From a virus, in IMG/VR virus record IMGVR_UViG_3300044691_000274, positions 39,538 through 103,537 of that record: DNA of 64,000 bases. One strand, 5' to 3'. Of this stretch, positions 4,096-63,809 are shown one piece after another. A program made the position numbers and the translations under genes. The stretch's first letter is position 1, and the number at the start of each line of letters is the position of its first letter. The notes beneath the pieces are model-generated. The model did no database searches. It was not told where the DNA came from and worked only from the letters and a program-made list of their open reading frames with translations.

Positions 4096-5282
4096 GCGTC
4101 ACCTTCCTGATCACGGACACACAGTTCACCCGAGGCAAGCTGGAGGTGGTCGGCGTCCCCACGCCCCCAGACGTGTCGCTGACGCGCGCAGTTTTGCAAG
4201 TAGCTGCAACGGCGCCGGCCAACCCAGCCATCCGGCTCGGTCGGGAGAGCATGCAGGTGATGGGGCAGGTCCCAGCGCCGATCGTCCATTTAGGCCGCGC
4301 GGTGATGCAGGTCCTCTGCACGCACACGCCCAACTATGCGAGAATTCCCGTGATCGTATCAGACGTGTTCCCATACGACATCTCTTACGACTCTGTCGGC
4401 TCGACCCGGTTCGCGACGGACGTCCTCGTCGTGGACTCGGGCGACGATCAGCGGACCCAGCGTTGGGATCAGCCCGTCATGGAATACGACGTCGCCTATG
4501 GCGTCCGTACCATGGAGCAACTGATCGCGCTGGTGGCCTTCTTCCGCTCGATGCGGGGCCGGGCTATCGCGTTCAACTATCAGGACAATGTCGATTACAC
4601 GTCCTCGATCCCGACGCGGTTCGAGTCGCGCGCGGCGCCGCCCATCACGCCCTTCGACCAGGGGTTCGCGGTCGGCGACAGCAACACGATGACGTTCCAG
4701 CTCTACAAGACCTACGCCACGGCGACGCAGACCCAGCCGCGCCCGATCACACGTCCGATCCCCGGCACGACTCGCATCGGGGTGAACGGCGTCGAGGTCA
4801 CCAACTGGACCGTCGACACGAACACCGGCCTCGTCACCTTCAGCTCAGCGTTCTTCAAGCTGTTCACGGACGCGCTGACGACCTCGGTCCTCACCGGCAA
4901 CACCGGGCGGCTTAGCGGCGTGGCCAACGACTTCAACGGTTTCAAGCCGTTCGTCGGCTACCGGGTGACGACCTCGGGCTTCGTCAACGCCCAGAACAAC
5001 GTGCCGCTGACCCAAGTCGCGACCATCGGCGCGGTGGCCGCTAACGGCTCGACGATGGACATCAATTTCCCGGCGAGCTTCGGCGGCGTGGTCGAGATCA
5101 CAGCCAACGCAACGGTGTCGCTCCATCCGGCGCCGCAGTCGGGGTCGTCGCTCACCGCAGGCTTCTGGTTCTATGTGCCAGTCCGCTTCGACACGGACAC
5201 GCTGCCTTTGACTATTGCGGATTACGGTGTCGGCGGCGCGAACAGCGTCAAGCTGATCGAAGTCCGGCCGAACGCATTCTGA
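4092..5282 (+). CDS. DUF2460 family distal tail protein (GTA g12-like) with N-terminal extension and internal insertion
   Basis: 'FPYDISYDSVGSTRFATDV...SGDDQR...W...YDVAYGVR...FF...RGRA..F', 'FQLYKTY', 'AGFWFYVPVRFDTD', 'LIEVR'. Confidence 0.9.
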   Translation: MSVTFLITDTQFTRGKLEVVGVPTPPDVSLTRAVLQVAATAPANPAIRLGRESMQVMGQVPAPIVHLGRAVMQVLCTHTPNYARIPVIVSDVFPYDISYDSVGSTRFATDVLVVDSGDDQRTQRWDQPVMEYDVAYGVRTMEQLIALVAFFRSMRGRAIAFNYQDNVDYTSSIPTRFESRAAPPITPFDQGFAVGDSNTMTFQLYKTYATATQTQPRPITRPIPGTTRIGVNGVEVTNWTVDTNTGLVTFSSAFFKLFTDALTTSVLTGNTGRLSGVANDFNGFKPFVGYRVTTSGFVNAQNNVPLTQVATIGAVAANGSTMDINFPASFGGVVEITANATVSLHPAPQSGSSLTAGFWFYVPVRFDTDTLPLTIADYGVGGANSVKLIEVRPNAF

Positions 5283-5289
5283 GGGCGTC

Positions 5290-6078
5290 ATGAAAAGCAT
5301 CCCTTCACCGCTGTTCACCGAGCTGCGATCTTCGAACCCCCGCATCGCGACGGGTTGGCTCGTCACGCGCAAGGACGGGGCGCAATATGGCTTCACGACG
5401 TCCGACATCGAGTTCGTCTACCAAGGACTCCTGTTCACGCCAGCCAACGGCTTCAACCCGTCCGCGATCGTCTCCAAGGCCGACGCCTCGGTCGACAACC
5501 TGGAGGCCCAGGTGCTCCTGTCCGATGTGATCACCGAGGAGGACCTGCGCGGCGGGGTGTGGAACAACGCTGCGATCAAAGTCTTCTGGATTTGCCCGTT
5601 CCATCCGGAGTGGGGAGTCGTCCCGCTGCGCGGCGGCATCTTCGGCGAGGTGGTCATCAAGGAGGGGGATTTCACCGTCCAGCTCCGCGCGCTGTTCGAG
5701 CAGCTCCAGCTGCCGTTCGGTTATCAGTATTCGCTCCAGTGCCAGGCCCAACTCGGCGACGCGCGGTGCAAGGTGAAAGTAACTGCACCGGTCTGGCAGC
5801 CGAACCACACGTACAGGCTCGGGCTGATCTCGGACGCGGGCATCGGGGACATCGTTCAGCCGACCGTCCCGAACGGCTTCTGGTACGTGGCCGCATACAC
5901 GACCGAGGTGGGCCTCCAGTCAGAGCGCCTGCCGACGCTGCCAGGCCAAGGGCTCTCGGGCAACGACGACCTGGGTCCGAACGACGACACCCAGACCGCT
6001 GTCGGGCCGGCGCAGGACAACTTCACCGAGTTCCATCCGATCTCGCCGGTCATGGACATTTTCGGGATTGAAATCTGA
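5290..6078 (+). CDS. DUF2163 baseplate hub protein, N-terminal part (GTA g13-like)
   Basis: 'WLVTRKDG..YGFT..D', 'VDNLE', 'ITEEDLRGGVWNNA', 'CQAQLGDARCKV'. Confidence 0.88.
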   Translation: MKSIPSPLFTELRSSNPRIATGWLVTRKDGAQYGFTTSDIEFVYQGLLFTPANGFNPSAIVSKADASVDNLEAQVLLSDVITEEDLRGGVWNNAAIKVFWICPFHPEWGVVPLRGGIFGEVVIKEGDFTVQLRALFEQLQLPFGYQYSLQCQAQLGDARCKVKVTAPVWQPNHTYRLGLISDAGIGDIVQPTVPNGFWYVAAYTTEVGLQSERLPTLPGQGLSGNDDLGPNDDTQTAVGPAQDNFTEFHPISPVMDIFGIEI

Positions 6079-6923
6079 TGGGCGGCAAGAGCAGCAACAA
6101 TAGCGGGTACAACGCGCTGCAGGGCGGGAGAGGTGCCATCATCGCCGACCCGACGCCACCGACCGCGACCTCAGTTTCGGGCGCCACGGAGCCCGTGTGG
6201 CCCACGTCGCCCGGCGCGACCATTCCTGATGGCGGCGTCAGCGGACCTCCGGTCATCACGGTGATCATCGAGACGGCGCTGACGAACAGCAATTTCATCA
6301 TCCGAGGGATCGACACGACCCACCTGACCGTGGGCATGCGCGTCTCGTGCGGGGGCCTGTATTATCCGGCAAACACGGTGATCCAGTCGATCGGCACATT
6401 CGGTTCGGGGTCCATCGTCACCAGCAATCCACCAACGTTGCCCACGGAGTTCGTCGGTCCCGTTTTCCTCACGTTCCAGAGCGGCGGGGGCGGCACGGGC
6501 GCGATCATTTGGACCGCGATCCCAGCGCGCCAGAGCCTGCCGGGGACCGTGACGGCCATCCTGAACGAGGCGACCTTCAACCACGACCTCGGCCTCTACC
6601 CGAGCCATTATTTTCAATATGGGACCGTGACCTGGCTCACAGGGGACAACGCCGGCTTCACTTGCGACGTGCGCGACTCGCTCGCCAGCGTGCGGGGGTC
6701 CCAGCCTTACGTCTACATGCTGGAGATCGCCCCGAACCCGATCCAGGTGGGCGACACGTTCACGGCACTCGTCGGCTGCTCGAAGATCAGGAGCAAGTGC
6801 CAGGCGTTCAACAATCTCGACAACCATCGAGCCTTCCCGGACATGCCGACCGAGGAGCGCGCGCTGGCGACGCCGAACATTTCGAACCAGGGCTTCTCGC
6901 CCAACAGCTCAAGCTCGAAGTGA
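6078..6923 (+). CDS. BR0599-like C-terminal part of the DUF2163 hub protein, encoded as a separate ORF
   Basis: 'YFQYGTVTWLTGDNAG', 'IQVGDTF..LVGCSKIRSKCQAFNNLDNHRAFPDMP'; TGATG stop/start overlap with the upstream ORF. Confidence 0.85.
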   Translation: MGGKSSNNSGYNALQGGRGAIIADPTPPTATSVSGATEPVWPTSPGATIPDGGVSGPPVITVIIETALTNSNFIIRGIDTTHLTVGMRVSCGGLYYPANTVIQSIGTFGSGSIVTSNPPTLPTEFVGPVFLTFQSGGGGTGAIIWTAIPARQSLPGTVTAILNEATFNHDLGLYPSHYFQYGTVTWLTGDNAGFTCDVRDSLASVRGSQPYVYMLEIAPNPIQVGDTFTALVGCSKIRSKCQAFNNLDNHRAFPDMPTEERALATPNISNQGFSPNSSSSK

Positions 6924-6927
6924 CGCC

Positions 6928-10051: not shown

Positions 10052-10086
10052 TGCAATTAACTGCACGATAGGATAGAGTTCCTGTT

Positions 10087-10530: not shown

Positions 10531-11900
10531 TGGCTGTCACTCCCAACCTGGGCTTGACCTTAATGAGTAGTTCCCAAGCGCAGAAGGAGGCGGTGTTCAA
10601 CAACGCCATCGTCGCCTTTGATGCGCTGTTCAAGGGCTCGGTCATCAGCTTGGCGCTGAACACTCCGCCTGGCTCGCCTAGTGCGGGCGACATTTACATC
10701 GTGGCGTCCGGAGGCAGCGGGCTGTGGTCGGGCCACGATCACTCGATCACGTTCTATTTCAACGGCTGGCAGTTCTTCACTCCGCCCCTAAAACTCACGC
10801 TTTTCGACCAAAACACGGCTGAATTCTACACTTATCAGGGAGGTTCGACCTTCTGGGTCGCCAATCCTTCGGGCCTCGTCGCGGTCCTGAACGACCTCAC
10901 GAACGTCGCCGGCACGCCGACCAACGGGCAGGTGCTGACGTACAATACGAGCACAAGCAAGTGGGGTCCGGTCACGCCGTCCGCAGGCGCGCTCTCGGTG
11001 TTGACAGACGTCAACGTCACAGAGGGCAGCCCGATCGACGGCCAATACCTCATGTGGAACAATGGGACGAGCAAGTGGGTCGCCCACGCCGTCCCGACAT
11101 ACCCGACTGCTCTCACCGGCCTGACCGACGTCAATGTGACGGAAAGCTCGGGCATCGACACTTATTTGCTGTCCTGGCACAACTCGACTGGCAAGTGGGT
11201 CGCCATCGCGCCGACCGCGCTGACCTCGCTGGCCTCGCTCGCCGGGGTGGGCGACGTCACATACGGTTCAGGGCCGACGATCGGCGACGGCCTGGTCTGG
11301 AGCGGCTCGCACTGGGCGCCTTCGTCCTCGACCATGAGCTATAAGTTCGAGAGTCTGACGGACGGCCCCGGCCTGTTCGCGGGCCACGGCGGCTCGGTCG
11401 TCATGGTGGACGTCAGCGAGACGACGCTCGACTATATGACGCTGCCCACGCTCGCTTCGAACATGAACGCCAGCCTGGCCTACGCCGGCCTGAACGACGT
11501 CACCATCACCTCGCTGGCGACCGGTCAAGTCATGGTGTGGAGTGGAACGAAGTGGACGAACCAAGCCCACGTCGATTTCCCATGCGGGTCCGCCGTAGTC
11601 TCGACCGGCACGCACAACGTTGATCGCAGCGTCGGCGAAGTCCAGCGACTCAGCCTGACGGGCAACACCACCCTAACCGTATCCAACTGGCCGGCCTCGG
11701 GGCTCTTCGGGCGCCTGGTCCTAGAAATCCAGAACACCGGGGCGTTCAACATCACGACCTGGCCCACCGGCACGATCTGGCCGGGCGGCACCGTGCCGAC
11801 CATCACGCCGGGCAGCGGCAAGAAGGACGTCATCATCCTGATGTCGTTCGACGGCGGCACGACGATTTATGGTAGTGCAGCGGGACAGAATTTCAGCTAA
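10530..11900 (+). CDS. DUF2793 tail fibre/virion protein
   Basis: 'TPNLGL..M..SQAQKE..FNNA...D', 'PPGSPSAGDIYIVA...W.GH'; repeated 'L..LTDV......GQ.L.WN..KW' units. Confidence 0.85.
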   Translation: MAVTPNLGLTLMSSSQAQKEAVFNNAIVAFDALFKGSVISLALNTPPGSPSAGDIYIVASGGSGLWSGHDHSITFYFNGWQFFTPPLKLTLFDQNTAEFYTYQGGSTFWVANPSGLVAVLNDLTNVAGTPTNGQVLTYNTSTSKWGPVTPSAGALSVLTDVNVTEGSPIDGQYLMWNNGTSKWVAHAVPTYPTALTGLTDVNVTESSGIDTYLLSWHNSTGKWVAIAPTALTSLASLAGVGDVTYGSGPTIGDGLVWSGSHWAPSSSTMSYKFESLTDGPGLFAGHGGSVVMVDVSETTLDYMTLPTLASNMNASLAYAGLNDVTITSLATGQVMVWSGTKWTNQAHVDFPCGSAVVSTGTHNVDRSVGEVQRLSLTGNTTLTVSNWPASGLFGRLVLEIQNTGAFNITTWPTGTIWPGGTVPTITPGSGKKDVIILMSFDGGTTIYGSAAGQNFS

Positions 11901-11934
11901 GGTGTGCAATCAATTGCACCACAAATAGGAGAGC

Positions 11935-12381
11935 ATGATGCCCGGTGGAAAAGGACCGACCTTCGATGGTCAGCTTCTTGGACTAATTCTGAATGGCTCA
12001 CCGATCGCGAACATCGCGGACAACGCCGCGTCCTCGCCATTGACGAACCTGTATTTGTCGCTGCACACGGCGACTCCCACGGGAGGCAACCAAGGCACCA
12101 GTGAGGCGGCTTACACCAGCTACGCGCGCAAGGCGCTAGCCCGCAGCACCGGCAGTCCGTCGTGGACCATCTCGGGCGCGGTCGCGACCCTGGCGGCCAT
12201 CCAGTCGTTCGTCGCGGCGACCGGCGGCTCTGAGACAGAACAGTTTTGGGGCATTGGCGTGTCTGCCACCGCGCATGACACTGGCGAACTCCTTTACTGG
12301 GGTCCAGTCACTCCAAACATCGTGGTTTCCAGCGGTGTCACCCCGCAGCTCGGCACCGGGACGACTATCACCGAAGCCTGA
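11935..12381 (+). CDS. Putative virion structural (fibre/decoration) protein
   Basis: RBS AGGAGAG; 'LYLSLHTATP...EAAYTSYAR...F..ATGG' recurrent phage virion motif. Confidence 0.65.
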   Translation: MMPGGKGPTFDGQLLGLILNGSPIANIADNAASSPLTNLYLSLHTATPTGGNQGTSEAAYTSYARKALARSTGSPSWTISGAVATLAAIQSFVAATGGSETEQFWGIGVSATAHDTGELLYWGPVTPNIVVSSGVTPQLGTGTTITEA

Positions 12382-12415
12382 TCTCAGGTTTGCAAGTAAC
12401 TGCAACAGAAGGACC

Positions 12416-13075
12416 ATGCCAATGCGCGCTTCTCTCTTCGCTCTCGGACTCGCCGCTCTTCTCTCCAGCCCAGCCGCAGCGGCGCTCGTCAACGAGGGTG
12501 AGTGGACCCTCGACACGACCACGAACCTGGAGTGGCGACATCCACAGCTAACGCGAGGTGTTGAAGACCCGTTGGGCGCAGGCGGCTTGGCAGGTGCAGG
12601 GTGGAACTACGCAAGCGGTGATGAGTTTTTGGCCCTTGTGACCGATTACGTTGGCCCTGCAGTAGGAGCTTTGCCACCGATAGACCTAAGCGCAGACGGG
12701 AACGTCGTGGGGTACAGCACGTCCTATTTTCTGCCAGTAATTCAATTAATAGGGGCATTAGGCGGGCCTACCTACGCTGTAAGCTACAACGATCCGGGGG
12801 CATATCGTGTGCACAGTACCCAGTACGAGCAGATGTCTATTTGGGGCATACTTGAGGTGAGCCCTAACCAATACGCTGAAGGTTACCTTATTTCGGACCT
12901 GTGGCCGACGTCTGCGGGCGCGTGGGCCTACGGAGACTCCAACGGCGGGGTAGCACAGTTCGAAGGCAGCTTCTTAGTTCGGGAGGCCCCTGCTCCAGAA
13001 ATCTCGACCATGCTCATGATGCTCATGGGCTTCGTGGGCCTCGGTTACGCCGGTCGGCGCCGCGCGGTGATCTAA
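12416..13075 (+). CDS. Secreted protein with PEP-CTERM-like (PEPxxWA-type) sorting signal
   Basis: Signal peptide 'MRASLFALGLAALLSSPAAA'; 'LDTTTNLEW'; C-terminal 'APEISTMLMMLMGFVGLGYAGRRR' (motif + TM + Arg cluster). Confidence 0.85.
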   Translation: MPMRASLFALGLAALLSSPAAAALVNEGEWTLDTTTNLEWRHPQLTRGVEDPLGAGGLAGAGWNYASGDEFLALVTDYVGPAVGALPPIDLSADGNVVGYSTSYFLPVIQLIGALGGPTYAVSYNDPGAYRVHSTQYEQMSIWGILEVSPNQYAEGYLISDLWPTSAGAWAYGDSNGGVAQFEGSFLVREAPAPEISTMLMMLMGFVGLGYAGRRRAVI

Positions 13076-13076
13076 G

Positions 13077-15086
13077 ATGGCCTACGCTAACGCAGCCGGG
13101 CAATACGTCAACTACGGCAATGGCACGACGACCGGCTATTACGCCCTGACCAAGTGGGCGGCCGGCGCGGCGGTGACCGTTGGCATGCTGCGCCGACAGC
13201 TTACGGTGACAGGGTTCGTAGCCGAGCGGGTGTTCGTCTGCATAGTCGCCGGCACCACTGGATCGACTGAGCCTACGTGGGTGTTGACCAAAGGCGCGCG
13301 GTCGCCCGCTACAGGCACTGACGGCACAGCTGTTGTCTGGATGGAAGTGACTGGGCAGCCAGGCGTCAACGGCGACGTGACAGCGAGGACAGACGGCGTC
13401 GTCAACTGCCCTCAGTGGACTGTCAGCTCGACCCCGGCCCTTGGCACAATCATCTACGTCCCGAGCAACGGGTCACTGCAAATATGCACCACCTCGGGAG
13501 CTGGCGGAGCCACTATACCAGGAACGTTCAGCACGACGCCAAGCACCCCAGCAGCAGATGGCTCGGCGTCGTGGACCAGCCTTGGATTGGCCAGCAGCTT
13601 CAGCATATGGAGCGCGCCACACGCGCGCCTGAATAACGCCTGGACGTCCACGTGGGGCTTCGCCGGACAAGATTTCTACGTCTCCTCGATCCACGCGGAG
13701 ACCCAGAGCACTGCGATGACGCTCACTAGCCCAGGCACGGTCACGACGCCGTGCCGAGTGATCTGCGTCGCCCAGTCGCCAGCCTCAACGCCTCCCGGCT
13801 CGGCTGACGTGACCACAGGCGCGTCGATCTCGACGAGTGGCAACACCGACATGAGCCTGTGCCCTGGCACGAACATGACCTATATCTACGGCGTCGCGTT
13901 CACGTGCAGCAACGGAGCGGGCGCGAGCGGGACCTTCTCGATGGCGGTAGGCGTCGCCACTCTCACGCTCGAAAACTGCTCAGTCGTTTTGGGTACGACG
14001 TTTGGCAATCCGTTGAAGGTCGGACCGGCCACCGCCAGCCAGCAGGCGACTGTGCTCTGGAACAACGTCAAGTGGGCATCCGGCAATTCGGCCCAGGCGA
14101 TCCAGGTACAACAGGCGGATTTCACCTGGAGGAACACGCCAAGCGGCGCGTTCAGCGGGGCGCAAGCCGGCAACCCTGCTGTTCAGGCCAACCCCGGTCC
14201 ATGCAACATTTTGTTGGAAGGGCTCGATCTCAGCAACAACACGCACCCTGTCGTTGGTTCGGTATCCGGCGGGACAGGCTACGCTTGCGTCAAAGACTGC
14301 AAACTGCCCCCTGGTATAGCTTGGGGGGTAGCAGGGACCGGGGCCAATTTCACGGTAGACTTGGTGCGCAGCGACACTGCTGGGGCCACGTATCGCAATG
14401 AGCGCCTCTCGTCCCAAGGGTCGCAGACGACCGACACCCAATTCTATCGAAACGGCGGCGCGTCGGATGGCACCACGCCGGTCTCACATATGATCGTCAC
14501 TTCTTCGAATGGCTTGCTCTCGACCTGGAACCCGTTCCTTGGCCTCCCGATCGCCATCTGGAACGGCACGACGGGGTCGAGCGTGCATGTCACGCTGTTC
14601 GGTATTGTCAACGCAGCGGTGGTGCCTAACAACGACGGGTTCTGGTTTGAAGCCGAATATCTCGGGACGTCGGGGTCCGCCGTCGGCTCCTTCGCTTCGG
14701 CCTTCAAGGCGAACGTCCTAGCAGCTCCAGCCGCGCTCACGGCTGACAGCACTTCGAGCTGGTCCGTAGGCGCACCCTTGCGAACCAACGGTGGATCGTA
14801 CAGCCCTGCCGACCCCCCGATCGCGGTGGCGAGCAACCCCGGTCGGCTGTTTTTCTGCACCACTACCGGAAACTCAGCAGGCTCCGAGCCGACAGGCGTT
14901 GGCGGCTATAGCGCGTGTATCGACGGTGGCTCCGTGACGGATAACACAGCGGTGTTCCGCGCAGGCTGCCGGTTCTCGGTGAGCCTCAACGTCACTCCGC
15001 AGCAGGCCGGCTACATCTACGCTTATCCGAAATATGCGCAGATGAGCACGTCCTACTTTATCGACCCGCTGATCGTGCTGACCTAA
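13077..15086 (+). CDS. Putative virion fibre/adhesin (Thr/Ser/Gly-rich, beta-helix-like core, repeated CBM-like modules)
   Basis: Three 'C.xxGxxG..EP.W....DG...W'-like modules; beta-rich middle; structural gene context. Confidence 0.65.
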   Translation: MAYANAAGQYVNYGNGTTTGYYALTKWAAGAAVTVGMLRRQLTVTGFVAERVFVCIVAGTTGSTEPTWVLTKGARSPATGTDGTAVVWMEVTGQPGVNGDVTARTDGVVNCPQWTVSSTPALGTIIYVPSNGSLQICTTSGAGGATIPGTFSTTPSTPAADGSASWTSLGLASSFSIWSAPHARLNNAWTSTWGFAGQDFYVSSIHAETQSTAMTLTSPGTVTTPCRVICVAQSPASTPPGSADVTTGASISTSGNTDMSLCPGTNMTYIYGVAFTCSNGAGASGTFSMAVGVATLTLENCSVVLGTTFGNPLKVGPATASQQATVLWNNVKWASGNSAQAIQVQQADFTWRNTPSGAFSGAQAGNPAVQANPGPCNILLEGLDLSNNTHPVVGSVSGGTGYACVKDCKLPPGIAWGVAGTGANFTVDLVRSDTAGATYRNERLSSQGSQTTDTQFYRNGGASDGTTPVSHMIVTSSNGLLSTWNPFLGLPIAIWNGTTGSSVHVTLFGIVNAAVVPNNDGFWFEAEYLGTSGSAVGSFASAFKANVLAAPAALTADSTSSWSVGAPLRTNGGSYSPADPPIAVASNPGRLFFCTTTGNSAGSEPTGVGGYSACIDGGSVTDNTAVFRAGCRFSVSLNVTPQQAGYIYAYPKYAQMSTSYFIDPLIVLT

Positions 15087-53741: not shown

Positions 53742-54233
53742 ATGACCGATTACACCGCCCTTGTGGCGAAATGGGCCACGCTCACCGGGACGACGCAGCA
53801 GAAGCTTGACGTGCTCAACGGGACGATGGTGGCAGGCCCCACGGTCGACGTCACGGTCCCACAAGTCGTTGGCTATCTCCTCCTGAACCAATCATATCTG
53901 CCGCTGCAGTCGTTTGCACTCACGACGGCGCCCGGCGGCAACGCAACTTACGCGGCAGCCTTGGTGGCGGCGAAGACGCTCATTGAGTGGCTCACCGTCG
54001 CGAACGCGCCGACCATGCAGATGTCGAACGCAGCCGTGGCTCAAACGGTGGCTGGGATGGCGGGTCTTCTCCTTGCGCAAGAGACCGCCGCACCAGGCAG
54101 CACAGGGTTCACGAGCGCGGTGTTCAACGGATTGCTCGCTCTCGCTGCGACGCAAATTCCGTGGTGGTTTTCGAGTGGGTACACGTCGCCGATCAGCGCG
54201 GGAGACCTCGCGGCGGCTGGAGGGTTAGCGTAA
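53742..54233 (+). CDS. Hypothetical (virion-like, Ala/Thr-rich) protein
   Basis: RBS; coupled to downstream ORF. Confidence 0.6.
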   Translation: MTDYTALVAKWATLTGTTQQKLDVLNGTMVAGPTVDVTVPQVVGYLLLNQSYLPLQSFALTTAPGGNATYAAALVAAKTLIEWLTVANAPTMQMSNAAVAQTVAGMAGLLLAQETAAPGSTGFTSAVFNGLLALAATQIPWWFSSGYTSPISAGDLAAAGGLA

Positions 54234-54706: not shown

Positions 54707-56751
54707 TGCCTGCGGTAGCGCGGGGGCTAGTTTTACCGCCGCGACCTTACAGCCTGAACGGGCTTGTCGGGCTGTATCCTGCTGCGACGCCACGCCTCAC
54801 AGCGTCGGTGTACGACGCGAGTGGCAGGAACAACACACTAACCGCCACCGGTTCTCCCGTCGTCACGGCAAGTCCTTACGGCCCAGCGATGGCGAGTGTT
54901 GGCGCGGCTCCATTCACGGCCACTGCCGTCAACGCTGCGTTCTTGACCCCCGATCTGACTTATGTCGCCTGGATCAACCTGAACAGCCTCGGGGCCAACA
55001 GGTGCATCTTTGGTGGGTCCAGCACCAATCCAATTCTCTTCATCAATACGACTAACAAGCTGACGTTCACGAAAAACGGCTCTGGAAACTTTGCCGTCGG
55101 GGCCACCTCGGTTGTTGCGGGGCAGTGGGTGCATGTGGCCGGTACTTATTCATCCGCCACTGGCGTTTGGATGGTGTACCTGAACGGTGTTCTGAACGGC
55201 ACCGGGACCTCGTTGCAGACATGGCTCACAACCGGCACGATTGGCGTCGGGGGCGGGGCGTTCACGATCCTGGGGCAGGTTGCAGACGTGCGCGTCTACA
55301 GCCGCGCGCTGCCCGCAAGCGAAATCTACGGGCTCTACGCCTTCGCCGCCCAAACCAGCTATCTCGAACCGATGACGCTGTTCTCGGCAGGGGGCGCCCA
55401 TGCGTTCACTAAGGTCGTCAGCATCTCGTCGGGGTCGAACCTCACGTTTCGCCGCTCGGTTGGCAAGAAGGTCGCCGTGGCTTCGTCGTCCAACGTCTCA
55501 GCCAAGAAGGCGACAGCAAAAAAGCTGCTCGTGGCGGCCCACTCGGCAGTCTCGACAAAGAAGGCCGTGACGCACAAGCTTCTCATCGCCGCGCACTCAG
55601 CGGTTGTCCTTAAGAAGGCTGTAGCGCACAAAGTGCTCGTGACCGCGCAGTCGACCGTCGCCATAAAGAAGGCCGTTGGCAAGAAGCTGGCGGTGGCGGC
55701 CCACTCGGCTGTGACCATCAAGAAGGCAGTCACCAAGAAGCTGTCCGTGGCTGCGAACTCATCTGTCGCCACGAAGAAGGCAGTCGCCAAGAAGCTGGCG
55801 GTAACGGCGCACTCAGCGGTTGGCATCAAGAAGGCGGTGGGCAAGAAACTGTCCGTGGCAGCGCACAGCGTGGTCTCGATCGTCGGGAGCCTAGCGACCG
55901 GCGCGCGGGCGCTGACCCACACGGTTTCGATCGCGGCTTCGTCCAGCGTGCATCTCAGCAAGTCCGTGAAGAAAAGGGTTTCGATCGCGACGGGGTCAAG
56001 CCTGCACTTCGGCAAGGCCGTGACGAAGCGAGTGGCCATCGCGGGCCACAGCGCGCTGAAGGTGCTCAAGGGCGCCCACTTGTCATTGAGCTTGGCAAGT
56101 GGTAGTGCAGTCAACGTCACCAAGAGGGTGTCGACGACCGTGGCCATCATGACCGCGAGCGCCGTCGCGGTGTCCAAGGCGATTGCCATCACCGTGGCGA
56201 TCCTCTCGGCCGGCGCGGTCCTGATTACAAACGACGCCAATAAGCACTACCAGATGCTGGTCAGCATCATGTCGACTTCGACGGTGTCCGTCGCTACGTC
56301 GTTCTTCGTTCGGTCAATCGCGGTCTCGTTAAGGCTGGTGGGATCAGCCTTTCATATGTTATTGTTCGGCAGGGCCTCGCGGCTGGAGTTGACTGGGATG
56401 AGCACGATTGCAAACGGCAAGTTTCACTACGGCGAGACTTGGGACATAACAGGCGTGGCTCGTGACGCCGTGGGCCAAGTCCTCGACCTCACGAACGGCA
56501 TCGTGCAGCTGCGGATCACGACTGCTGCGGCTGTCGTCCTCGACCTGTCGACACCGAGCACAGGCTTCATCACCGACGCAGTTAACGGCAAGTACCTGTT
56601 CCAAATCTCGGCGGACCAGCAGATAACCGCTGGCCTGACGCTGAAATATTACACCTATGAGGTCCGCGTCATTCTGCAGGACGGCACGAGGTCGGTGCAG
56701 AACACCGGCATTTTGACCATCTTGCCGTCGAAGTTCACTCAGTTTCCTTGA
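54706..56751 (+). CDS. LamG/concanavalin-domain fibre protein with 18-aa Lys-rich repeats and a C-terminal BppU_N-like domain
   Basis: 'DASGRNNT', 'TYVAWIN', 'GQWVHVAGTY...VYLNG', 'ADVRVYSRAL..EI..LY'; KKAV repeats; 'G...DLT....LRI...YTYEV.V...DG....G.LTI'. Confidence 0.75.
   Translation: MPAVARGLVLPPRPYSLNGLVGLYPAATPRLTASVYDASGRNNTLTATGSPVVTASPYGPAMASVGAAPFTATAVNAAFLTPDLTYVAWINLNSLGANRCIFGGSSTNPILFINTTNKLTFTKNGSGNFAVGATSVVAGQWVHVAGTYSSATGVWMVYLNGVLNGTGTSLQTWLTTGTIGVGGGAFTILGQVADVRVYSRALPASEIYGLYAFAAQTSYLEPMTLFSAGGAHAFTKVVSISSGSNLTFRRSVGKKVAVASSSNVSAKKATAKKLLVAAHSAVSTKKAVTHKLLIAAHSAVVLKKAVAHKVLVTAQSTVAIKKAVGKKLAVAAHSAVTIKKAVTKKLSVAANSSVATKKAVAKKLAVTAHSAVGIKKAVGKKLSVAAHSVVSIVGSLATGARALTHTVSIAASSSVHLSKSVKKRVSIATGSSLHFGKAVTKRVAIAGHSALKVLKGAHLSLSLASGSAVNVTKRVSTTVAIMTASAVAVSKAIAITVAILSAGAVLITNDANKHYQMLVSIMSTSTVSVATSFFVRSIAVSLRLVGSAFHMLLFGRASRLELTGMSTIANGKFHYGETWDITGVARDAVGQVLDLTNGIVQLRITTAAAVVLDLSTPSTGFITDAVNGKYLFQISADQQITAGLTLKYYTYEVRVILQDGTRSVQNTGILTILPSKFTQFP
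55450..55881 (+). repeat. Coding tandem repeat, about 8 x 54 bp (KKAVxKKLxVAAHSxVxx)
   Basis: Visible directly in the translation. Confidence 0.85.
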
Positions 56752-56770
56752 TGCGTGCAAGTAATTGCAA

Positions 56771-57019
56771 ATGACCAAATCGCTCATTCAGCCGCAGGAT
56801 CGCCTGGGTCTTTCCCGGACCGAAGCCTCGGAATATATCGGGGTCGGCGTCGGCCTGTTCGACCTGATGGTTAAGGACGGTCGCATGCCGCCCCCGCGAC
56901 ACGTCAACAGCAGGCTCATTTGGGCGAGAAAAGAGGTTGAGAAGCATTTTGTGGACTTGCCTTACGCCGACGTAGTAGCGCAAAATGGGGAGTCGCCCAC
57001 CGGGTGGGACATGACGTAG
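56771..57019 (+). CDS. AlpA-like excisionase/HTH regulator
   Basis: 'GLSRTEASEYIGVG...FD.MVKDGRMPPP......IW'; directly upstream of the integrase. Confidence 0.85.
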   Translation: MTKSLIQPQDRLGLSRTEASEYIGVGVGLFDLMVKDGRMPPPRHVNSRLIWARKEVEKHFVDLPYADVVAQNGESPTGWDMT

Positions 57020-57033
57020 GCAGGAGGCCCGCG

Positions 57034-58164
57034 TTGAACGTTCGCATCAAGTATCTGAAGCAAGAGACCGACCGCCACGGCAAGCCTCGCCTCTACGTCC
57101 GACTCCCAGGCCAAAAGCTAATCCGCCTGCCGGTCAACACGATCAAGGACCCGCAGTTCGGTCCAGCCTACGCAGCGGCGCTCAACGGCGAGCCTGTTCC
57201 GAGTCCAGCACCCAAGCAACCAACCAAGCGGGAGAAGGCGCCCACGGGCAGCCTACGGGCTCTGTGCGACCGATACTTCGACTATTTCACCAAGGACACG
57301 ACGCTGGCGGAGCGGACGAAGTACGTGCGCAGGCGGAACCTGGAGAATGTGTGCAGGGAGATGGTGAAGTCGCCCTCTGGCATGCGCCCGGCCGCCGACA
57401 TCCCAGTGAAGATCATGACGCGCGCCCACGTGTCGCAGCTGCTCGATCGCAACCGCGCCACGCCTGAGGCGTCCAACGATCGGCGCAAGGCGCTCATGGC
57501 CTTGTTCAAGTGGGCGATCCCGCGCGGCTACGCCGACAAGAACCCGGTGACCGAGACACGCCCGATCAAGACCAAGACTGGTGGCTTCACGACGTGGAAG
57601 AGGGAGCACGTCGAGCGCTACGCCGAGACGCACCCGTTCGGCACCAAGGAGTATCTGGCCCTCGCCTTGTTTCTGTTCACCGGCCAGCGGCGCTCCGACG
57701 TGATCACTTTTGGCCCCAAGCATGTCGAGAACGGGGTGCTCCATTTCGCCCAGCAGAAGACGCGCAAGGAGATGCACATTCCGATCCATGCTGGGCTGCA
57801 GGAGGTCCTCGATCTAGTGCCGTCTGAGCAGCCTACGTTCCTGGTGACTGAGTTCGGGAAGCCCTTCGCGGCCGGCGGCTTCAGCCATTGGTTTCACGAC
57901 CGCTGCGTCGATGCTGGGCTTCGGGGCTTCTCGTGCCACGGGCTCCGCAAGGCCCTCCAGACGTTCGGTGCTAACGCGGGCCTCAGCGCGCACGAGCTGC
58001 AGGCGCTGGCCGGGCATTCGAGCCTCAAGGAGACGTCCCGCTACACGGAGCAGCGTGACAGTGCGCTCCTGGCTGACAGCGGGATGACCAAGCTGTCCGG
58101 TCTGCGAATTGGCGCACCGAAAATCGACCCCCCAAAAAGTGCGCCTAAGAAGCCAAAAAAGTAA
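57034..58164 (+). CDS. int: Tyrosine recombinase/integrase
   Basis: RBS CAGGAGG + TTG; 'DRHGK.R.YVR'; catalytic 'TGQRRSD', 'QQKT', 'HGLRK', 'GH.....T.RY'. Confidence 0.95.
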   Translation: MNVRIKYLKQETDRHGKPRLYVRLPGQKLIRLPVNTIKDPQFGPAYAAALNGEPVPSPAPKQPTKREKAPTGSLRALCDRYFDYFTKDTTLAERTKYVRRRNLENVCREMVKSPSGMRPAADIPVKIMTRAHVSQLLDRNRATPEASNDRRKALMALFKWAIPRGYADKNPVTETRPIKTKTGGFTTWKREHVERYAETHPFGTKEYLALALFLFTGQRRSDVITFGPKHVENGVLHFAQQKTRKEMHIPIHAGLQEVLDLVPSEQPTFLVTEFGKPFAAGGFSHWFHDRCVDAGLRGFSCHGLRKALQTFGANAGLSAHELQALAGHSSLKETSRYTEQRDSALLADSGMTKLSGLRIGAPKIDPPKSAPKKPKK

Positions 58165-58345
58165 ACGAAATCAATGGTCACAAAAGACCTCGCATCCTCG
58201 GTCGGGGCGTGTAACTCGCGATATATCAAATACTTAGATGGCCCAGTGCGCCAAAAAGACTCCCACGTAAACCATGGCCTCACAAAGCGCAGTGTCGCAC
58301 CAGAGTGCCGTTGCAATGCGCGTGCTGTGCAGTTAAAGTCATCCG
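58111..58345. other. Putative attP region with IHF consensus and short arm-like repeats
   Basis: Directly after int; TATCAAATACTTA (58224-58236) matches WATCAANNNNTTR; GGCGCAC/GTGCGCC at 58111, 58139, 58246. Confidence 0.55.
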
Positions 58346-58389
58346 CAAGGCGTTTTGATTTCCCCTTTCCCCCACCCCTGGAGTCCCCC

Positions 58390-58659
58390 ATGTTTGAAAC
58401 CCTCGTCGCTCTAATCCCGTCATGGGATCACTTCGTTGGCGGAGCCTCAGTCGCGGCCGGCGTCGGCGCTTGGTCCGGCGTCAAGAAGGCTTACACCTGG
58501 GTCGAGAACGAAGTCGCCCCCCTCTTGAAGGACCTCCGCGCATTTCGGGCACAAGCGGCCGTCGCCGCGAACAAGGCCGTTGCCGAGGCCAAGGTCGTCT
58601 CCGCGCCGGTCGCGGCTGCGGTCGCCCCGGTCGTGGCTGAGGTCGCCGCGAAGGTCTGA
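58390..58659 (+). CDS. Small Ala/Val-rich membrane protein
   Basis: RBS GGAG; hydrophobic N-terminus; followed by hairpin 58670-58697. Confidence 0.6.
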   Translation: MFETLVALIPSWDHFVGGASVAAGVGAWSGVKKAYTWVENEVAPLLKDLRAFRAQAAVAANKAVAEAKVVSAPVAAAVAPVVAEVAAKV

Positions 58660-59134
58660 TCAAAAAACAACGGGGGGTTGGAACAACCAACTCCCCGCCT
58701 ACCGTTGGTTGCGCTCAGATTTTCCCCGCAAGAGGCGTGGGAATACCCCCAATATGGCGATTGAGTGTTTTCCTCAAGACGAAGAAACGGATCACGGGAA
58801 CGTGTTCGGCCCTGGTGATTTGGGTCCGTTTCGCGATGAAACAGTCAGTTAAGTGACCTTGGGTGATACCCACACATGTGTCATGCACATCGGCTGGACA
58901 GCAACGTAGGATAAGAGCACCGTAGACCCATAATAAAACAAAAGAAAGCGGAGGCTAAAGGTGGCTGGTACAACTTGTTGGAGAAAAGATAGTATTTCAT
59001 CTGAGAACGAATGGCATAGAACAATATGGGCTTGGCGCAATCCAACGGCCGGCGGGACCTATCGCGAAGGCATGGTAATCTTGGTCGGATTGGAACCAAC
59101 CAGTGGTTGTGACCAGCAAATCCACCGAGAAGAC

Positions 59135-59422
59135 ATGACTCACGAGTTCCAAGCGTACGAGATTGATCCACGCACGCCTGTTGACCTTAAGAAAAGCCTA
59201 TTCGAGCAGCCTGGACTAACCCCCATGATGCCGTGGTGCGTGGCTTTTCAGTTCCCAGCCCTGTCGAACGCAGACGCGGACCTTCGCATCGGCAACCTGG
59301 TTGACCTCGTGGTCAAAAACATCCTGCCGGTGGACATCCCAGGCGAATGGCGCCGGTTCTTCCCGGAGGGTCTTGAGGTCCATCGCAAGGACAAGACAGC
59401 CGGACTCGCCAAAGCAGCATGA
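59135..59422 (+). CDS. Hypothetical protein (start uncertain)
   Basis: ORF ends at hairpin CACGGGGG/CCCCCGTG 59430-59454. Confidence 0.5.
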   Translation: MTHEFQAYEIDPRTPVDLKKSLFEQPGLTPMMPWCVAFQFPALSNADADLRIGNLVDLVVKNILPVDIPGEWRRFFPEGLEVHRKDKTAGLAKAA

Positions 59423-59549
59423 CAGCAACCACGGGGGTGGACAAAACCCCCGTGCAATTGCCTGCAATCTTAGCAAAAAGCTAGTTGCACAATCGCCCCC
59501 TGCTGGTGTAAGACAAGGCACGTGCAGTTAACTGCAACGGAGCTTGACA

Positions 59550-59852: not shown

Positions 59853-60275
59853 ATGAAGATTTCCTACAGCCGTCGCGCCGCCGACACGCCAGCGTTCGCC
59901 CTCATTGCTGAAGGGTGGAACGAACTCGTCCAGGGCGGGCTAACGCCTGAGCTGCGGGGCGACTCTCCTGTCGGCACTGAGAACCAAGTGCTCTACGCTG
60001 AGCGCGAGGACGGGGAGATCGTCGCATTCTTGTGTTTCACCCACCACGAGGCGCTCAGCAGCTTCTCCGTTTCCTTGGCCTACGTCGAGCCCACCAGCCG
60101 CAAGCAGGGTGTCTTCCGGGATATGTGGGCCGCGCTGATTGAGCGCGCCAAGCGGGCGAAGGTGCGGCGCGTGACCGTGGACGTCCATCCGGACAACGAG
60201 AACATGACCGAGGTCATGTCCCGGCTCTCCATGCCGGTCGTCGCTTGGACTTACGAAGCGCTCCTTGAGGTTTGA
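59853..60275 (+). CDS. GNAT family acetyltransferase
   Basis: 'DGEIVAF', 'YVEPTSRKQGV', 'VHPDN..M'. Confidence 0.85.
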   Translation: MKISYSRRAADTPAFALIAEGWNELVQGGLTPELRGDSPVGTENQVLYAEREDGEIVAFLCFTHHEALSSFSVSLAYVEPTSRKQGVFRDMWAALIERAKRAKVRRVTVDVHPDNENMTEVMSRLSMPVVAWTYEALLEV

Positions 60276-60277
60276 GC

Positions 60278-60592
60278 ATGCCCGAGGTCACAGACTGGGG
60301 AAAAGAGATCAAGAGGCTTCGCCTGGAGAACGGGCACACGCATCGCTCTCTAGCTGCTGCCGCTGGCGTGAGCCGATCATTCCTGAACGACATCGAGAAC
60401 GGCCTAACCGTTGGCAAAACTGACGTCGTCGCGAAGACGATGGCCTTCTTCGGCTTTGACCTGGACGCCTGCGCGCGGACCAGCCCAGAGGAGCAACTCC
60501 GCCTGCAAGCGATGGTGGAGACCAACCCGGCGCGCCGCTCCGTATTAGCCGCAAAGCGTCTCGTGACAATGTTCCCCTTGACTCGGGGCTGA
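60278..60592 (+). CDS. XRE-family HTH regulator
   Basis: 'IKRLRLENGHTHRSLAAAAGVSRSFLNDIENG'. Confidence 0.9.
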   Translation: MPEVTDWGKEIKRLRLENGHTHRSLAAAAGVSRSFLNDIENGLTVGKTDVVAKTMAFFGFDLDACARTSPEEQLRLQAMVETNPARRSVLAAKRLVTMFPLTRG

Positions 60593-60643
60593 CCCTCGAC
60601 CATTGTGCAAACAACTGCAATCCCGCTAGCATGGAGGCTGGGG

Positions 60644-61318: not shown

Positions 61319-61354
61319 ACGATGATGCAATCAACTGCAACGTCGGAGGCTGCC

Positions 61355-61594
61355 ATGACACTCAACGATTTCTTCGAGCGCATCTCCCTTGAAGCGGCCA
61401 AGAGCTTCCCCGATCTCGTGGGACTCGTGATCTGCGCGCAAGGCGGCGAAGGCGACGAGACGGCCATCACCTCATTCACGAACCTGGAGCCCGAGGATGC
61501 TCTGGACTTAGCCATAGACGCGTTCAGCTCCGAGACGGACGAAACGGTGCTGGGCGCCGAGAGCGACCCTGACTGGGATGGGAGATTACATTGA
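61355..61594 (+). CDS. Acidic hypothetical protein
   Basis: RBS GGAGG. Confidence 0.6.
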   Translation: MTLNDFFERISLEAAKSFPDLVGLVICAQGGEGDETAITSFTNLEPEDALDLAIDAFSSETDETVLGAESDPDWDGRLH

Positions 61595-61956
61595 AGCCAA
61601 TCAAGCTGACTTCGTTCTCGTATCGAAACGGCGCCCCTCCCAAGGATGCGACCACCATCATCGACTGCCGGCCCATGCGGAACCCTCACCACGTCATGTC
61701 GCTGCGCCCGCTGGATGGTCGCTCGCTCGACGTCCAGGATTACGTGGGCTGCGATCCTCTGTTCCGGGACATGCGACAGGAAGTGCTGCGCGCGTGCGTG
61801 AAGACGTCGCCCACAGGAATGGCGCCGCCGGTCTCGATAGCCTTCGGCTGTTTCGGGGGCCGACACCGCTCGGTCGCATTAGCGGAGATGTCCGCCAAGA
61901 TGCTCCGGGACCTCCGCCTGCCGGTTGAACTTTCCCACACGGAACTAAGCGCATGA
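61591..61956 (+). CDS. Stand-alone RapZ C-terminal-domain protein
   Basis: 'SFSYRNGAP', 'IDCR.MRNPH...LRPLDG...DV..YV', 'IAFGCFGGRHRSVALAE', 'HTEL'. Confidence 0.85.
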   Translation: MKPIKLTSFSYRNGAPPKDATTIIDCRPMRNPHHVMSLRPLDGRSLDVQDYVGCDPLFRDMRQEVLRACVKTSPTGMAPPVSIAFGCFGGRHRSVALAEMSAKMLRDLRLPVELSHTELSA

Positions 61957-62578: not shown

Positions 62579-63046
62579 ATGCGCACTCGATCACACCCAG
62601 AGTTCGTTCGTCTTGCCCATTATCTGAAGCTCCGACGTCAGCGGGAACAGAAGCGTCAGGAGATCGAAGCAGCGTGGACCCAATACGGACCAGCCATCAC
62701 CAAGACGATGCTCAACACCGTGGCGGCCCAACGCCAGCTCAGGGCGAAGCACGCGGCTCAGGACGGGCTGTGCTTTTACTGCGAGCAGGAAGCCTGGCTC
62801 ACCGAGAAGCGCCTGAACAAAGACCTAATGTCCGAGGGCAATCCTGGGGCCGACCACCACATGAACCGGCGCCGCAAGAAGACCCAAGCCACGCGGGAGC
62901 ATCTCATCAGGAGGTGCGATGGCGGGACAGACGCCGACTCCAACATCGTCATGGCTTGCGCCGGCTGCAATCACGAACGACAGGACACACCGGTCGAAGT
63001 CTGGAAGTGGCACGTACGCGCGCGCCTCCCCCTCAACTGCGCATAG
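62579..63046 (+). CDS. HNH endonuclease
   Basis: 'Q.GLCFYC', 'ATREHL.RR..GG.D..SNIVMACAGCN..R'. Confidence 0.88.
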   Translation: MRTRSHPEFVRLAHYLKLRRQREQKRQEIEAAWTQYGPAITKTMLNTVAAQRQLRAKHAAQDGLCFYCEQEAWLTEKRLNKDLMSEGNPGADHHMNRRRKKTQATREHLIRRCDGGTDADSNIVMACAGCNHERQDTPVEVWKWHVRARLPLNCA

Positions 63047-63055
63047 GAGAATGAC

Positions 63056-63776
63056 ATGAACCTGAAAAAAGTATTCCTGGTCGCTGACCTGGGCAAGAAG
63101 CTGAATAGCGTGCGCCACAGGATAGACCGCTTCGGCAATTATCGCGACCAGAACGACCAAGGTCACACGATGCCGATCACGGGCGAAACCGAGATCAAGT
63201 TCGACGACGATAAAGTTCAGGTCCCGCGCCAGTTGGTGCTCGACATGCTCAAGAGCGCTGAGAAGCATTACGCCAAGCTGCTCAAGGCCGAGGGCATCGA
63301 CACGGACGGGGCGACATTCTGATGGCTCTGAAACAAGTCACCAGCGAGCAGTTCTTCAAGGTCGTCGGTCCAATCGACTCGATCCCCAAGGTCGACGTGA
63401 ACACGTTCAAGGATCGGCTGCACGTCTCGCACTGGGAGGTCCAGCACACCCGAAAATACCTGGGCCTCTGCAAGTCCGACAGCTGGGGCATCCTCCCCAC
63501 CGAATTTTACCTGGTGGCTCCATGAGCGATCGCCGCGAATACGCCTACCGCCAGATCGCCTACCGCGACGGGGTGGAGATCAGCAGCCAGGTGATCAAGG
63601 TCGTCTACAGCTACCACGTCGAGTTCCTGCGCGACATCGCCATGTGGAACAGCCTGGGCTTCGAGCCAAGTCCGATCGGCGGCCTCTCGTATCGCTACCT
63701 GACGTCTCACTATCACCGGGGCTCAGGGCGCTATGTCGATGACAGTGAAGCCTCGCGCAACCCGTACGAACGCTGA
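63056..63776 (+). CDS. Three small hypothetical ORFs (63056-63322, 63322-63525, 63522-63776)
   Basis: RBS AGGAG and stop/start overlaps. Confidence 0.6.
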
Positions 63777-63809
63777 CGAGTGCAATCACTTGCAAATCAG
63801 GAGACTGAA

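Follow-up and report, generated by a model that had tools for sequence, protein, structure and literature searches.

Positions 39,538 to 103,537 of the IMG/VR virus record IMGVR_UViG_3300044691_000274 (the window: 64,000 nucleotides (nt), numbered here from its own first letter) raise the question of why one short box, TGCA-N6-TGCA, recurs throughout a phage genome, and which protein might read it. The record is a single contig of 103,537 base pairs (bp), of which the window is the final part. The phage is uncultured, has a G+C content of 61%, and occurs in a single sequencing run, a soil metagenome that is probably its source; no RNA run is listed as containing it. An initial annotation of the window had proposed an undescribed, stoperator-like control system, based on at least 36 exact sites where about one would be expected by chance. 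The boxes are under selection, phage-specific and statistically two-fold symmetric, and they are probably bound as double-stranded DNA by one symmetric dimeric protein encoded by the phage.

Number, symmetry and placement of the boxes

The window contains 39 exact copies of TGCA-N6-TGCA, compared with 1.29 ± 1.10 in 100 dinucleotide shuffles (largest count 6), and the proposed excess over background is therefore upheld. The whole genome contains 69 copies, or one per 1.5 kb, where about one or two are expected. N6 is the sole enriched spacing, with 69 sites against 0–4 for each of the other spacings from N0 to N15. The spacer follows the pattern RNYRNY in 39 of 39 window boxes, in agreement with the initial annotation, and in 67 of 69 genome-wide (0.03 expected under a first-order Markov model). 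The spacers are also A+T-rich, as first described, at approximately 69% A+T despite the G+C-rich genome, and the consensus includes one more base at either end, G before the box and C or A after it. Allowing one mismatch in the core while keeping the RNYRNY spacer gives 19 further sites across the genome, where 3.2 are expected; 10 of them lie in the window, fewer than the 15 or so near matches originally reported. The tetranucleotide TGCA occurs 472 times against 358 expected, and 138 of these occurrences lie within boxes, which leaves TGCA outside boxes at about the expected rate. Since the 69 sites carry 45 different spacers, the boxes are not recent copies of a mobile element.

The left and right halves of the box mirror each other in base frequency, position 7 being T in 51 sites and C in 17, and position 8 being A in 49 and G in 20. 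The central step is TA in 35 sites, TG in 16, CA in 14 and CG in three, and the box is thus unoriented in this genome (TG 16 versus CA 14), even though all genes lie on the + strand. At individual sites, however, the two halves do not complement each other: the commonest combination at positions 5 and 10 is A–C, in 24 sites, with G–T in 14, and the flanking pair 0/15 is most often G–A, in 20 sites. Complementary spacer pairs average 1.20 per site, compared with approximately 1.44 expected from independent halves, and compensatory changes that would keep a stem do not exceed chance at pairs 5/10, 6/9 and 0/15 across the 69 sites. A single site among the 69, TGCAGTTAACTGCA at 59523, is perfectly palindromic, and it is the one singled out by the initial annotation. 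No conserved element was found at a fixed distance within ±60 nt of the boxes in any of five genomes. Matching halves that do not pair, a spacing of one turn and a flexible centre therefore point to a dimeric protein on double-stranded DNA and not to a hairpin.

The array lies mainly at gene and transcription-unit boundaries, after stop codons or terminators, and before ribosome-binding sites or a few promoter-like sites. Genome-wide, 59 of the 69 boxes are intergenic or within 90 nt of a gene end, consistent with the gene-junction placement first described, and the remaining 10 lie deeper inside genes. Many occupy the narrow gap that separates a stop codon from the following Shine-Dalgarno (SD) sequence. 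A few clear operon boundaries are arranged as stop codon, intrinsic terminator, box and sometimes promoter-like site, and a box lies 10–22 nt after six of approximately seven strong terminators, those in the window being at 35207 and 38946. The boxes deep inside genes of the window are at 4195, 27721, 32709, 53516 and 53905; the original list of intragenic boxes was roughly right, in that 4195 and 53516 are deep and 23626 lies 33 codons before a stop codon, and it is to be extended by 27721, 32709 and 53905. The motif TTGAC occurs no more than 12 nt downstream of five boxes, against 0.6 expected. The pair at 59453 and 59523 brackets a promoter-like site, TTGCAC-18-TAAGAC, and other pairs lie 45–71 bp apart. 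Overall, the spacing between boxes in this phage is not significantly regular (coefficient of variation (CV) 0.85, P=0.10). The boxes of the window and the two terminators are as follows.

4195–4208: box TGCAAGTAGCTGCA, deep within a tail gene
10052–10065: box, begins 1 nt past a stop codon
11905–11918: box, in a short stop-to-start gap
12391–12404: box, 10 nt past a stop codon
16534–16547: box, in the final codons of a gene, reading LQVTA
19295–19308: box, 5 nt past a stop codon
21689–21702: box, at the 3' end of an AAA-ATPase gene
23626–23639: box, within a 375-amino-acid (aa) gene, 33 codons ahead of the stop codon
25580–25593: box, 11 nt past a helicase stop codon
27721–27734: box, deep within a primase-like gene
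29155–29168: box, 5 nt past a stop codon
32709–32722: box, deep within a Cas4-like exonuclease gene
33876–33889: box, 17 nt past the RuvC stop codon and 56 nt ahead of the start of the candidate binder gene
35207–35231, + strand: strong intrinsic terminator, closing the candidate binder gene, with a box directly downstream
35241–35254: box, 10 nt past the strong terminator, with TTGACT 8 nt downstream (35263–35268)
36874–36887: box, 43 nt past the stop codon of the binder paralogue
38946–38964, + strand: intrinsic terminator, with a box and then a promoter-like site downstream
38984–38997: box, 20 nt past the terminator and 8 nt ahead of promoter-like TTGACT-17-TATGCT (39006–39034)
39202–39215: box, in a region of small open reading frames (ORFs) with weak coding signal
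39435–39448: box, in the same small-ORF region of weak coding signal as the 39202 box
40614–40627: box, near a gene 3' end and 65 nt ahead of the Arc-like gene
41232–41245: box, at the end of a small ORF
41689–41702: box, in a short intergenic gap
43651–43664: box, in a short intergenic gap
44525–44538: box, right ahead of a beta-helix protein gene
46303–46316: box, 36 nt past a stop codon
47627–47640: box, overlapping a stop codon
49587–49600: box, at a junction of small ORFs
51824–51837: box, 8 nt past a stop codon and immediately ahead of AGGA and ATG
53078–53091: box, overlapping a stop codon, with TTGACT 1 nt downstream; first of a pair 71 bp apart
53149–53162: box, second of the 71-bp pair with 53078
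53516–53529: box, deep within a gene
53905–53918: box, deep within a gene
56756–56769: box, 5 nt past the stop codon of a 682-aa LamG-domain gene, upstream of the integrase region
59453–59466: box, upstream of promoter-like TTGCAC-18-TAAGAC (59485–59514)
59523–59536: box TGCAGTTAACTGCA, 8 nt past the -10-like hexamer of the 59485–59514 site and right ahead of an SD sequence and ATG
60606–60619: box, 14 nt past the stop codon of the XRE-type helix-turn-helix (HTH) gene
61326–61339: box, 8 nt past a stop codon
62172–62185: box, 1 nt past a stop codon
62562–62575: box, 11 nt past a stop codon, ahead of an HNH gene
63781–63794: box, 5 nt past a stop codon, followed by AGGAG

Boxes in related phages and in a host chromosome

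By tblastn with the portal protein, the nearest cultured relative of this phage is Rhodobacter phage RcZahn, at 58% amino acid identity. Further relatives are the Rhizobium phages RHph_Y1_11 and RHph_TM16 and the Stenotrophomonas phages DLP5, DLP3 and Summit (Delepquintavirus), and VHS1-like Vibrio phages are more distant. A search of bacterial assemblies with a terminase profile finds additional relatives, one of them in Roseococcus pinisoli XZZS9, a prophage of at least 95 kb within a 668-kb contig (approximately 58,000–153,000).

The initial annotation had suggested examining conservation in related phages, and boxes are present in RcZahn, in the RHph phages, in DLP5 and Summit and in the Roseococcus prophage, each with its own spacers. 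RcZahn carries 27 boxes, typically TGCAATYAAYTGCA and often 2–4 nt ahead of GGAGG; RHph_Y1_11 and RHph_TM16 carry 15 and 18, typically TGCAACAWATTGCA; and Summit and DLP5 carry 37 and 38, typically TGCAATCAATTGCA. Vibrio phage 1 (JF713456.1, 81.5 kb) has six sites of mixed spelling, of which only three or four are box-like. Across the phages the outer TGCA and the Y-R step at the centre stay constant and the inner bases vary by phage, a pattern expected of co-evolving, possibly heteroimmune, pairs of protein and operator. In each of the four phages of the cultured type, a box is found a short way upstream of the gene for the prohead protease, and approximately one third of the sites in the relatives are inside genes. 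The boxes are more evenly spaced than random in DLP5 (CV 0.52, P<0.001) and in RcZahn (CV 0.62, P=0.004).

The Roseococcus prophage contains approximately 19 copies of GTGCACCYRGGTGCAC, some of them extended to an 18–20-bp palindrome, whereas the rest of the 4.8-Mb genome (approximately 4.7 Mb) contains approximately 20 TGCA-N6-TGCA sites with unrelated spacers. The array is thus confined to the prophage in the one chromosome tested. An equal density in the host chromosome had been named at the outset as a sign of a host factor or methylation site, and this explanation is rejected for Roseococcus pinisoli, the one host chromosome examined: the chromosome outside the prophage lacks the box, which in this host, at least, is therefore no motif of the host genome at large.

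The same signal recurs in uncultured viruses. In 80 IMG/VR loci with a gene homologous to that of the candidate binder described below, the leading inverted repeat is in most cases the box or a nested GCAA-N4-TTGC, also in contigs of 36–37% G+C, and a few distant members have the variant spellings TGAAATTAATTTCA, TGACATTAATGTCA and TCCAATCAATTGGA. The box is a lineage trait with phage-specific spacers across a wide group of phages.

The gene content of this phage was determined by PHROG and Pfam scans. It comprises a structural module of siphovirus type (portal, protease, capsid and a tape measure of 1,537 aa) and a module for replication and recombination (DNA polymerase, helicases, primase and SSB-like, RecA-like, Cas4-like and RuvC proteins). 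The + strand carries every gene with a convincing third-codon-position G+C signal. The AT skew on this coding strand is strongly positive across the whole window (A over T, +0.04 to +0.2), which fits transcription, and possibly replication, in one direction. The integrase named in the initial annotation is present, indicating a temperate lifestyle for this phage as judged from its sequence.

57004–58161, + strand: tyrosine integrase (Pfam Phage_integrase, 8e-15)

Directly after the integrase gene, 58165–59540 is a stretch of approximately 1.4 kb with weak coding signal that ends in box, promoter-like site and box, and is a plausible place for attP. Accessory genes of the window encode a protein with a SLOG/YspA-like domain (40198–40659) and a protein with a RapZ C-terminal domain (61591–61953). 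Upstream of the window, in coordinates of the whole record, 1228–2784 encodes a ParB-like N-terminal domain fused to a DNA methyltransferase (PHROG 498, 3e-94), and 4331–5017 is a second, weak methyltransferase-like ORF. A conserved block at 11570–17152 contains a pyruvate-phosphate-dikinase-like kinase (PHROG 18609, 3.5e-153) and, according to the RcZahn annotation, two tyrosine-phosphatase-like genes. It sits between terminase and DNA polymerase in all relatives and its content is unusual for a packaging region.

Candidate box-binding proteins

All ORFs of this phage were compared with those of RcZahn, RHph_Y1_11, DLP5 and the Roseococcus prophage. Structural proteins, replication enzymes and one protein of unknown function, with 411 aa, make up the conserved core. 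This is the sole unknown-function, non-enzymatic-looking protein found in all five box-bearing genomes, and its gene follows that of RuvC in every genome compared. The comparison singles out the same protein that stood first among the binder candidates of the initial annotation. A shorter paralogue is encoded nearby, and three other genes of the window encode putative DNA-binding proteins.

33945–35177, + strand: candidate binder, 411 aa, PHROG 17202 (unknown function)
36289–36828, + strand: 180-aa paralogue of the candidate, comprising only the putative DNA-binding core
40692–40904, + strand: Arc/AmrZ-like ribbon-helix-helix (RHH) protein, 70 aa (Pfam Arc 5.7e-14; AmrZ 5.7e-11)
60272–60592, + strand: XRE-type HTH protein, 106 aa, adjoining a GNAT gene
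22599–23726, + strand: 375-aa homologue of RcZahn gp51 ('HTH DNA binding')

The 411-aa protein is the best candidate for the box binder, an assignment that falls a little short of probable. Its gene and an array of 14–16-bp dyads occur together in the five genomes and in most of the 80 loci, a co-occurrence that is confounded by common descent. AlphaFold models of the protein have a predicted local distance difference test (pLDDT) score of 76 over the whole length and 85.5 over residues 145–345, and divide the chain into a helical module at the N-terminus, a disordered linker rich in Lys, a helical core (approximately residues 150–290) and, at the C-terminus, a strand-helix-helix that may serve for dimerisation. 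In structural comparisons with VIA-align, the core matches ParB bound to parS (6s6h_B; Z 7.5–7.6, 114–116 residues aligned), Spo0J (1vz0; Z 6.8–7.5) and KorB in complex with its operator (1r71; Z 5.9–6.3, 107 of 114 residues), each alignment extending over the greater part of the target domain, and ParB, Spo0J and KorB are the only DNA-binding families among the top seven structural matches. The modelled core therefore bears a borderline resemblance to the DNA-binding domain of ParB and KorB, which is a lead and not a result. The C-terminal module gives weak structural matches of RHH type (Z 4.2–4.5); an RHH assignment of the C-terminus was set aside as unsupported, with no Pfam match and an hhalign probability of 0.15% against the Arc-like protein.

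Within the family of the candidate, hardly any change is seen in the putative recognition helix (YRKAxYLIxIY) or in a GWTK motif, paralleling the invariant TGCA. The residue before RKA is Tyr in phages with TTAA box centres, and E, G or S together with R or K accompanies TCAA or TTGA centres; this apparent covariation of helix and box centre is essentially one phylogenetic split in the sequences compared and is only a lead.

Several observations weigh against the assignment. The Raf1 alpha domain scores slightly above ParB as a structural match to the core (Z 8.1–8.6), and structural Z values below 8 lie in a range that the tool describes as common. Foldseek finds ParB chains with a probability of 0.6–0.77 and with E-values of approximately 1. 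HMMER, Pfam and PDB sequence searches of the candidate return no ParB, KorB or RHH family, and a search of a protein atlas yields weak leads only (DUF3102 and 'ParB HTH', with scores up to 0.86). There is no ParBc match, and so no sign of the ParB/Srx CTP-binding domain with its GxxRxxA box, in the candidate or in 82 homologues of similar length; the N-terminal half of the candidate is predicted to be helical or disordered. Because the ParB/Srx CTPase domain is lacking, a sliding clamp of the KorB type is unsupported. Furthermore, Vibrio phage 1 encodes a clear homologue of the candidate (56003–56602, 1.8e-75) and yet has only the three or four box-like sites, and some IMG/VR loci that bear a homologue have none or one box within ±10 kb, so the candidate is not always accompanied by a dense array.

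A sigma-70-like site at 33917–33946 is not counted as the promoter of the candidate gene, because its -10 element overlaps the ATG. The 180-aa paralogue, judged from its sequence, could be a competitor or provide a second specificity. As for the other putative DNA-binding proteins, the Arc-like protein may be an alternative binder; its gene has no tblastn match in RcZahn, RHph or DLP5, a result qualified by the fact that small proteins can escape detection. The XRE-type HTH protein is present in three of the four relatives; it follows a GNAT acetyltransferase gene (59853–60592 for both), and the pair is kept in RcZahn (gp134/gp135) and RHph. The pair looks like a GNAT toxin-antitoxin system, or else the HTH protein may be a regulator and an alternative binder. 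The gp51 homologue is kept in four phages and was not detected in the Roseococcus prophage.

Proposed role of the boxes and known systems

In the explanation preferred here, a phage-encoded dimer would bind the box, each half reading kTGCA and a phage-specific spacer across the flexible central pyrimidine-purine step. The bound protein would regulate or insulate transcription by host RNA polymerase over the one-strand genome, either by occluding promoters or by acting as a roadblock at the boundaries of units. The most likely role, put forward tentatively, is that of a global repressor or silencer during the temperate state; the main variant would be a role in organising the genome or as a loading site. 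The temperate context rests on the integrase encoded here, the integration of a relative in the genome of a Roseococcus isolate, and the lysogen formation reported for DLP3 (PMC7326821). The most detailed version of the proposal is more doubtful. It holds that a ParB-fold HTH core without a CTPase, joined to an RHH-like dimer module, would act on approximately 70 boundary palindromes to silence or insulate every unit; the spacer (AWYRWT, ACAAAT or CCYRGG) would serve as an immunity code against cross-repression, and a broad clade of phages infecting Alpha- and Gammaproteobacteria would have the scheme in common.

Not every observation fits a symmetric site for a repressor of this kind, and the following count against it. 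The association with TTGAC is absent in the relatives, and no recognisable sigma-70 promoter lies close to most boxes. In the relatives, one sense-strand form of the central dinucleotide is favoured (CA:TG of 15:3 in RcZahn and 24:11 in DLP5), and RHph has a single oriented spacer, ACAAAT, at eight to zero; this bias hints at some directionality of the box. Moreover, an integrase is absent from the RcZahn annotation, and the role is for that reason perhaps not tied to lysogeny.

Four other explanations were weighed against a transcriptional role for a box-bound dimer. An array that organises or segregates the chromosome, in which the boxes load or anchor a ParB-fold protein and effects on transcription are secondary, would accommodate the ParB/KorB-like fold of the candidate core, the even spacing in DLP5 and RcZahn and the third or so of sites that are intragenic in the relatives, and DLP5 reportedly persists as a phagemid. 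This explanation is nevertheless unlikely, given that the boxes of the present phage are not regularly spaced (P=0.10), cluster at gene boundaries and form pairs 45–71 bp apart, and that neither this integrase-bearing phage nor the integrated Roseococcus relative needs partition. It is also left without direct support, because no ParA/SopA-type ATPase or CTPase domain was found among approximately 80 proteins scanned (Pfam and PHROGs, not every small ORF). An element acting at the level of RNA, as an intercistronic hairpin that stabilises mRNA ends, guides an endoribonuclease or tunes translation, is improbable. In this phage, RcZahn, DLP5 and the Roseococcus prophage, the end of a box does often fall 1–8 nt ahead of a Shine-Dalgarno sequence, and in Roseococcus the palindrome reaches 18–20 nt; the UGCA arms pair in 65 of 69 sites, and a box with 3 nt on either side folds at a mean of -4.9 kcal/mol, compared with -2.5 for random 20-mers. 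The constant 4-bp stem is marginal, however, and no covariation lengthens it: at positions 5/10, A-C, which cannot pair in the sense RNA, is commoner (24) than the pairable G-U (14), and position 0/15 is G-A in 20 sites. Nor does a hairpin provide a rationale for a symmetric R/Y pattern in its loop, for sites deep within genes (10 here and approximately one third in the relatives), or for the even spacing in the relatives.

The two remaining explanations are less probable still. A target of a DNA enzyme, whether methyltransferase, nickase, HNH nuclease or recombinase, would serve for self-marking or for exchange of modules at boundaries, and is very unlikely. The phage does encode the ParB-domain DNA methyltransferase (1228–2784 of the record), the weak second methyltransferase-like ORF and an HNH protein, bipartite 4-N6-4 sites resemble Type I targets, and boundary repeats have been proposed as recombination linkers. 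Against this, such an enzyme gives no reason for placement at gene boundaries and terminators or for an R/Y-patterned, A+T-rich spacer, TGCA outside the boxes occurs at about its expected rate, the spacers vary by phage, and the methyltransferase lies outside the conserved core. Least probable of all is a phage-specific promoter, with the box read ahead of most genes by a phage RNA polymerase or sigma-like factor. Its appeal lies in the position of boxes after terminators and a few nucleotides ahead of Shine-Dalgarno sequences, in a centre that is biased on the sense strand and so suggests some direction in RcZahn, DLP5, RHph and Roseococcus, and in the presence of sigma factors among the insignificant Foldseek matches of the candidate. 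Yet the site is unoriented in this phage (TG 16, CA 14) with all genes pointing one way, dyad symmetry is not a promoter property, and some boxes are located well inside genes; neither the proteins scanned nor the RcZahn annotation yielded an RNA polymerase or sigma family, and matches to the sigma domain-4 fold (Z 4.1–4.5) fall below those to ParB. Sigma-54 and other known promoters were rejected, as the GG/GC register does not fit TGCA-N6-TGCA when aligned and no -10 or -35 element lies at a fixed distance.

Among known systems, the stoperators that gave the initial annotation its analogy are the closest in proposed function to a silencing array. A stoperator is an asymmetric site of 13 bp that follows the direction of transcription and is recognised by a monomeric repressor. 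The comparison holds for many copies spread genome-wide, for short intergenic gaps and for a temperate phage (69 copies, 59 at boundaries, and an integrase), and it fails for the site itself, as the boxes are two-fold symmetric, unoriented here and found in phages of Proteobacteria; 'stoperator-like' is therefore apt only loosely, for the many boundary copies and not for the symmetry and orientation. In Cluster A mycobacteriophages, the stoperators of the L5 repressor gp71 occur in dozens of copies, many in short gaps, and are thought to silence genome-wide (PMC4351075). No gp71 homologue came to light in the present phage, though no search was aimed at one.

The closest system in kind is the repeat of Cluster O mycobacteriophages such as Corndog, a 17-bp dyad, TGTTCGGNNNCCGAACA, with more than 30 copies, invariant arms and a variable centre (PMC4351075). 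Approximately 40% of its copies are in short intergenic gaps and a third are in genes, with no meaningful orientation, and its authors predict a dimeric DNA-binding protein, the function being unknown (PMC4351075). The boxes share the invariant arms, the variable centre, the copy number above 30 and the lack of orientation. In contrast, the sequence, the phage lineage and the host phylum are unrelated, Cluster O phages are not evidently temperate, and the boxes are denser (one per 1.5 kb), lie tighter to gene ends and terminators, and extend over a wider group with varied spacers.

KorB of the IncP plasmid RK2 is the closest system in the fold of the candidate protein, whose core aligns with the operator-bound KorB domain (1r71). 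RK2 has 12 palindromic OB operators, some near promoters and some far from them, and KorB is a dimeric ParB-fold HTH protein and global repressor, a CTP-dependent sliding clamp that works with KorA (PMC11790492). The present candidate differs in having no ParB/Srx domain and no detectable sequence homology to KorB, no KorA was identified, and the sites are five to six times more numerous.

Other dispersed or TGCA-containing operators are less similar. ParB-parS, Noc-NBS and sopC of N15 are dispersed 14–16-bp palindromes bound by dimers of the ParB family. In the present phage, unlike these systems, no ParA or CTPase domain was found in the scans, the boxes lie at gene boundaries, and the phage integrates. 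The operators of the P1 C1 repressor are 17-bp asymmetric sites, approximately 15–20 in number, at promoters dispersed over a temperate phage of approximately 94 kb; the likeness is that one repressor, putative here, would serve many operators across a temperate phage genome. CopG of pMV158 contacts a pseudosymmetric element, 13 bp long, extending over two TGCA motifs (PMC3413123). The spacing there is N5 in a single operator, compared with N6 in an array here, and by analogy this two-TGCA operator would keep an RHH reader in play.

The box is not mentioned in the papers on RcZahn (PMC8601537) or DLP3 (PMC7326821). A literature search with the motif string, limited to open-access papers, returned unrelated primers and no description of the array, so the term 'undescribed' stands as far as the open-access literature goes.

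To our knowledge, genome-wide operator arrays are known in detail only for the mycobacteriophage stoperators and for KorB on RK2, and we know of no explanation of the Cluster O repeat since 2015. The array described here is conserved across a large, poorly studied clade of siphophages of approximately 80–120 kb, which includes cultured phages with tractable hosts: RcZahn of Rhodobacter capsulatus, DLP3, DLP5 and Summit of Stenotrophomonas, and RHph of Rhizobium. One of these, DLP3, has been proposed for therapy. If the boxes control lysogeny or gene timing, they would explain how a one-strand genome without a divergent switch is regulated. Were the proposal true, the reading of the spacer would provide a ready test for immunity groups, and the clade would offer a compact, orthogonal set of operator-repressor pairs.

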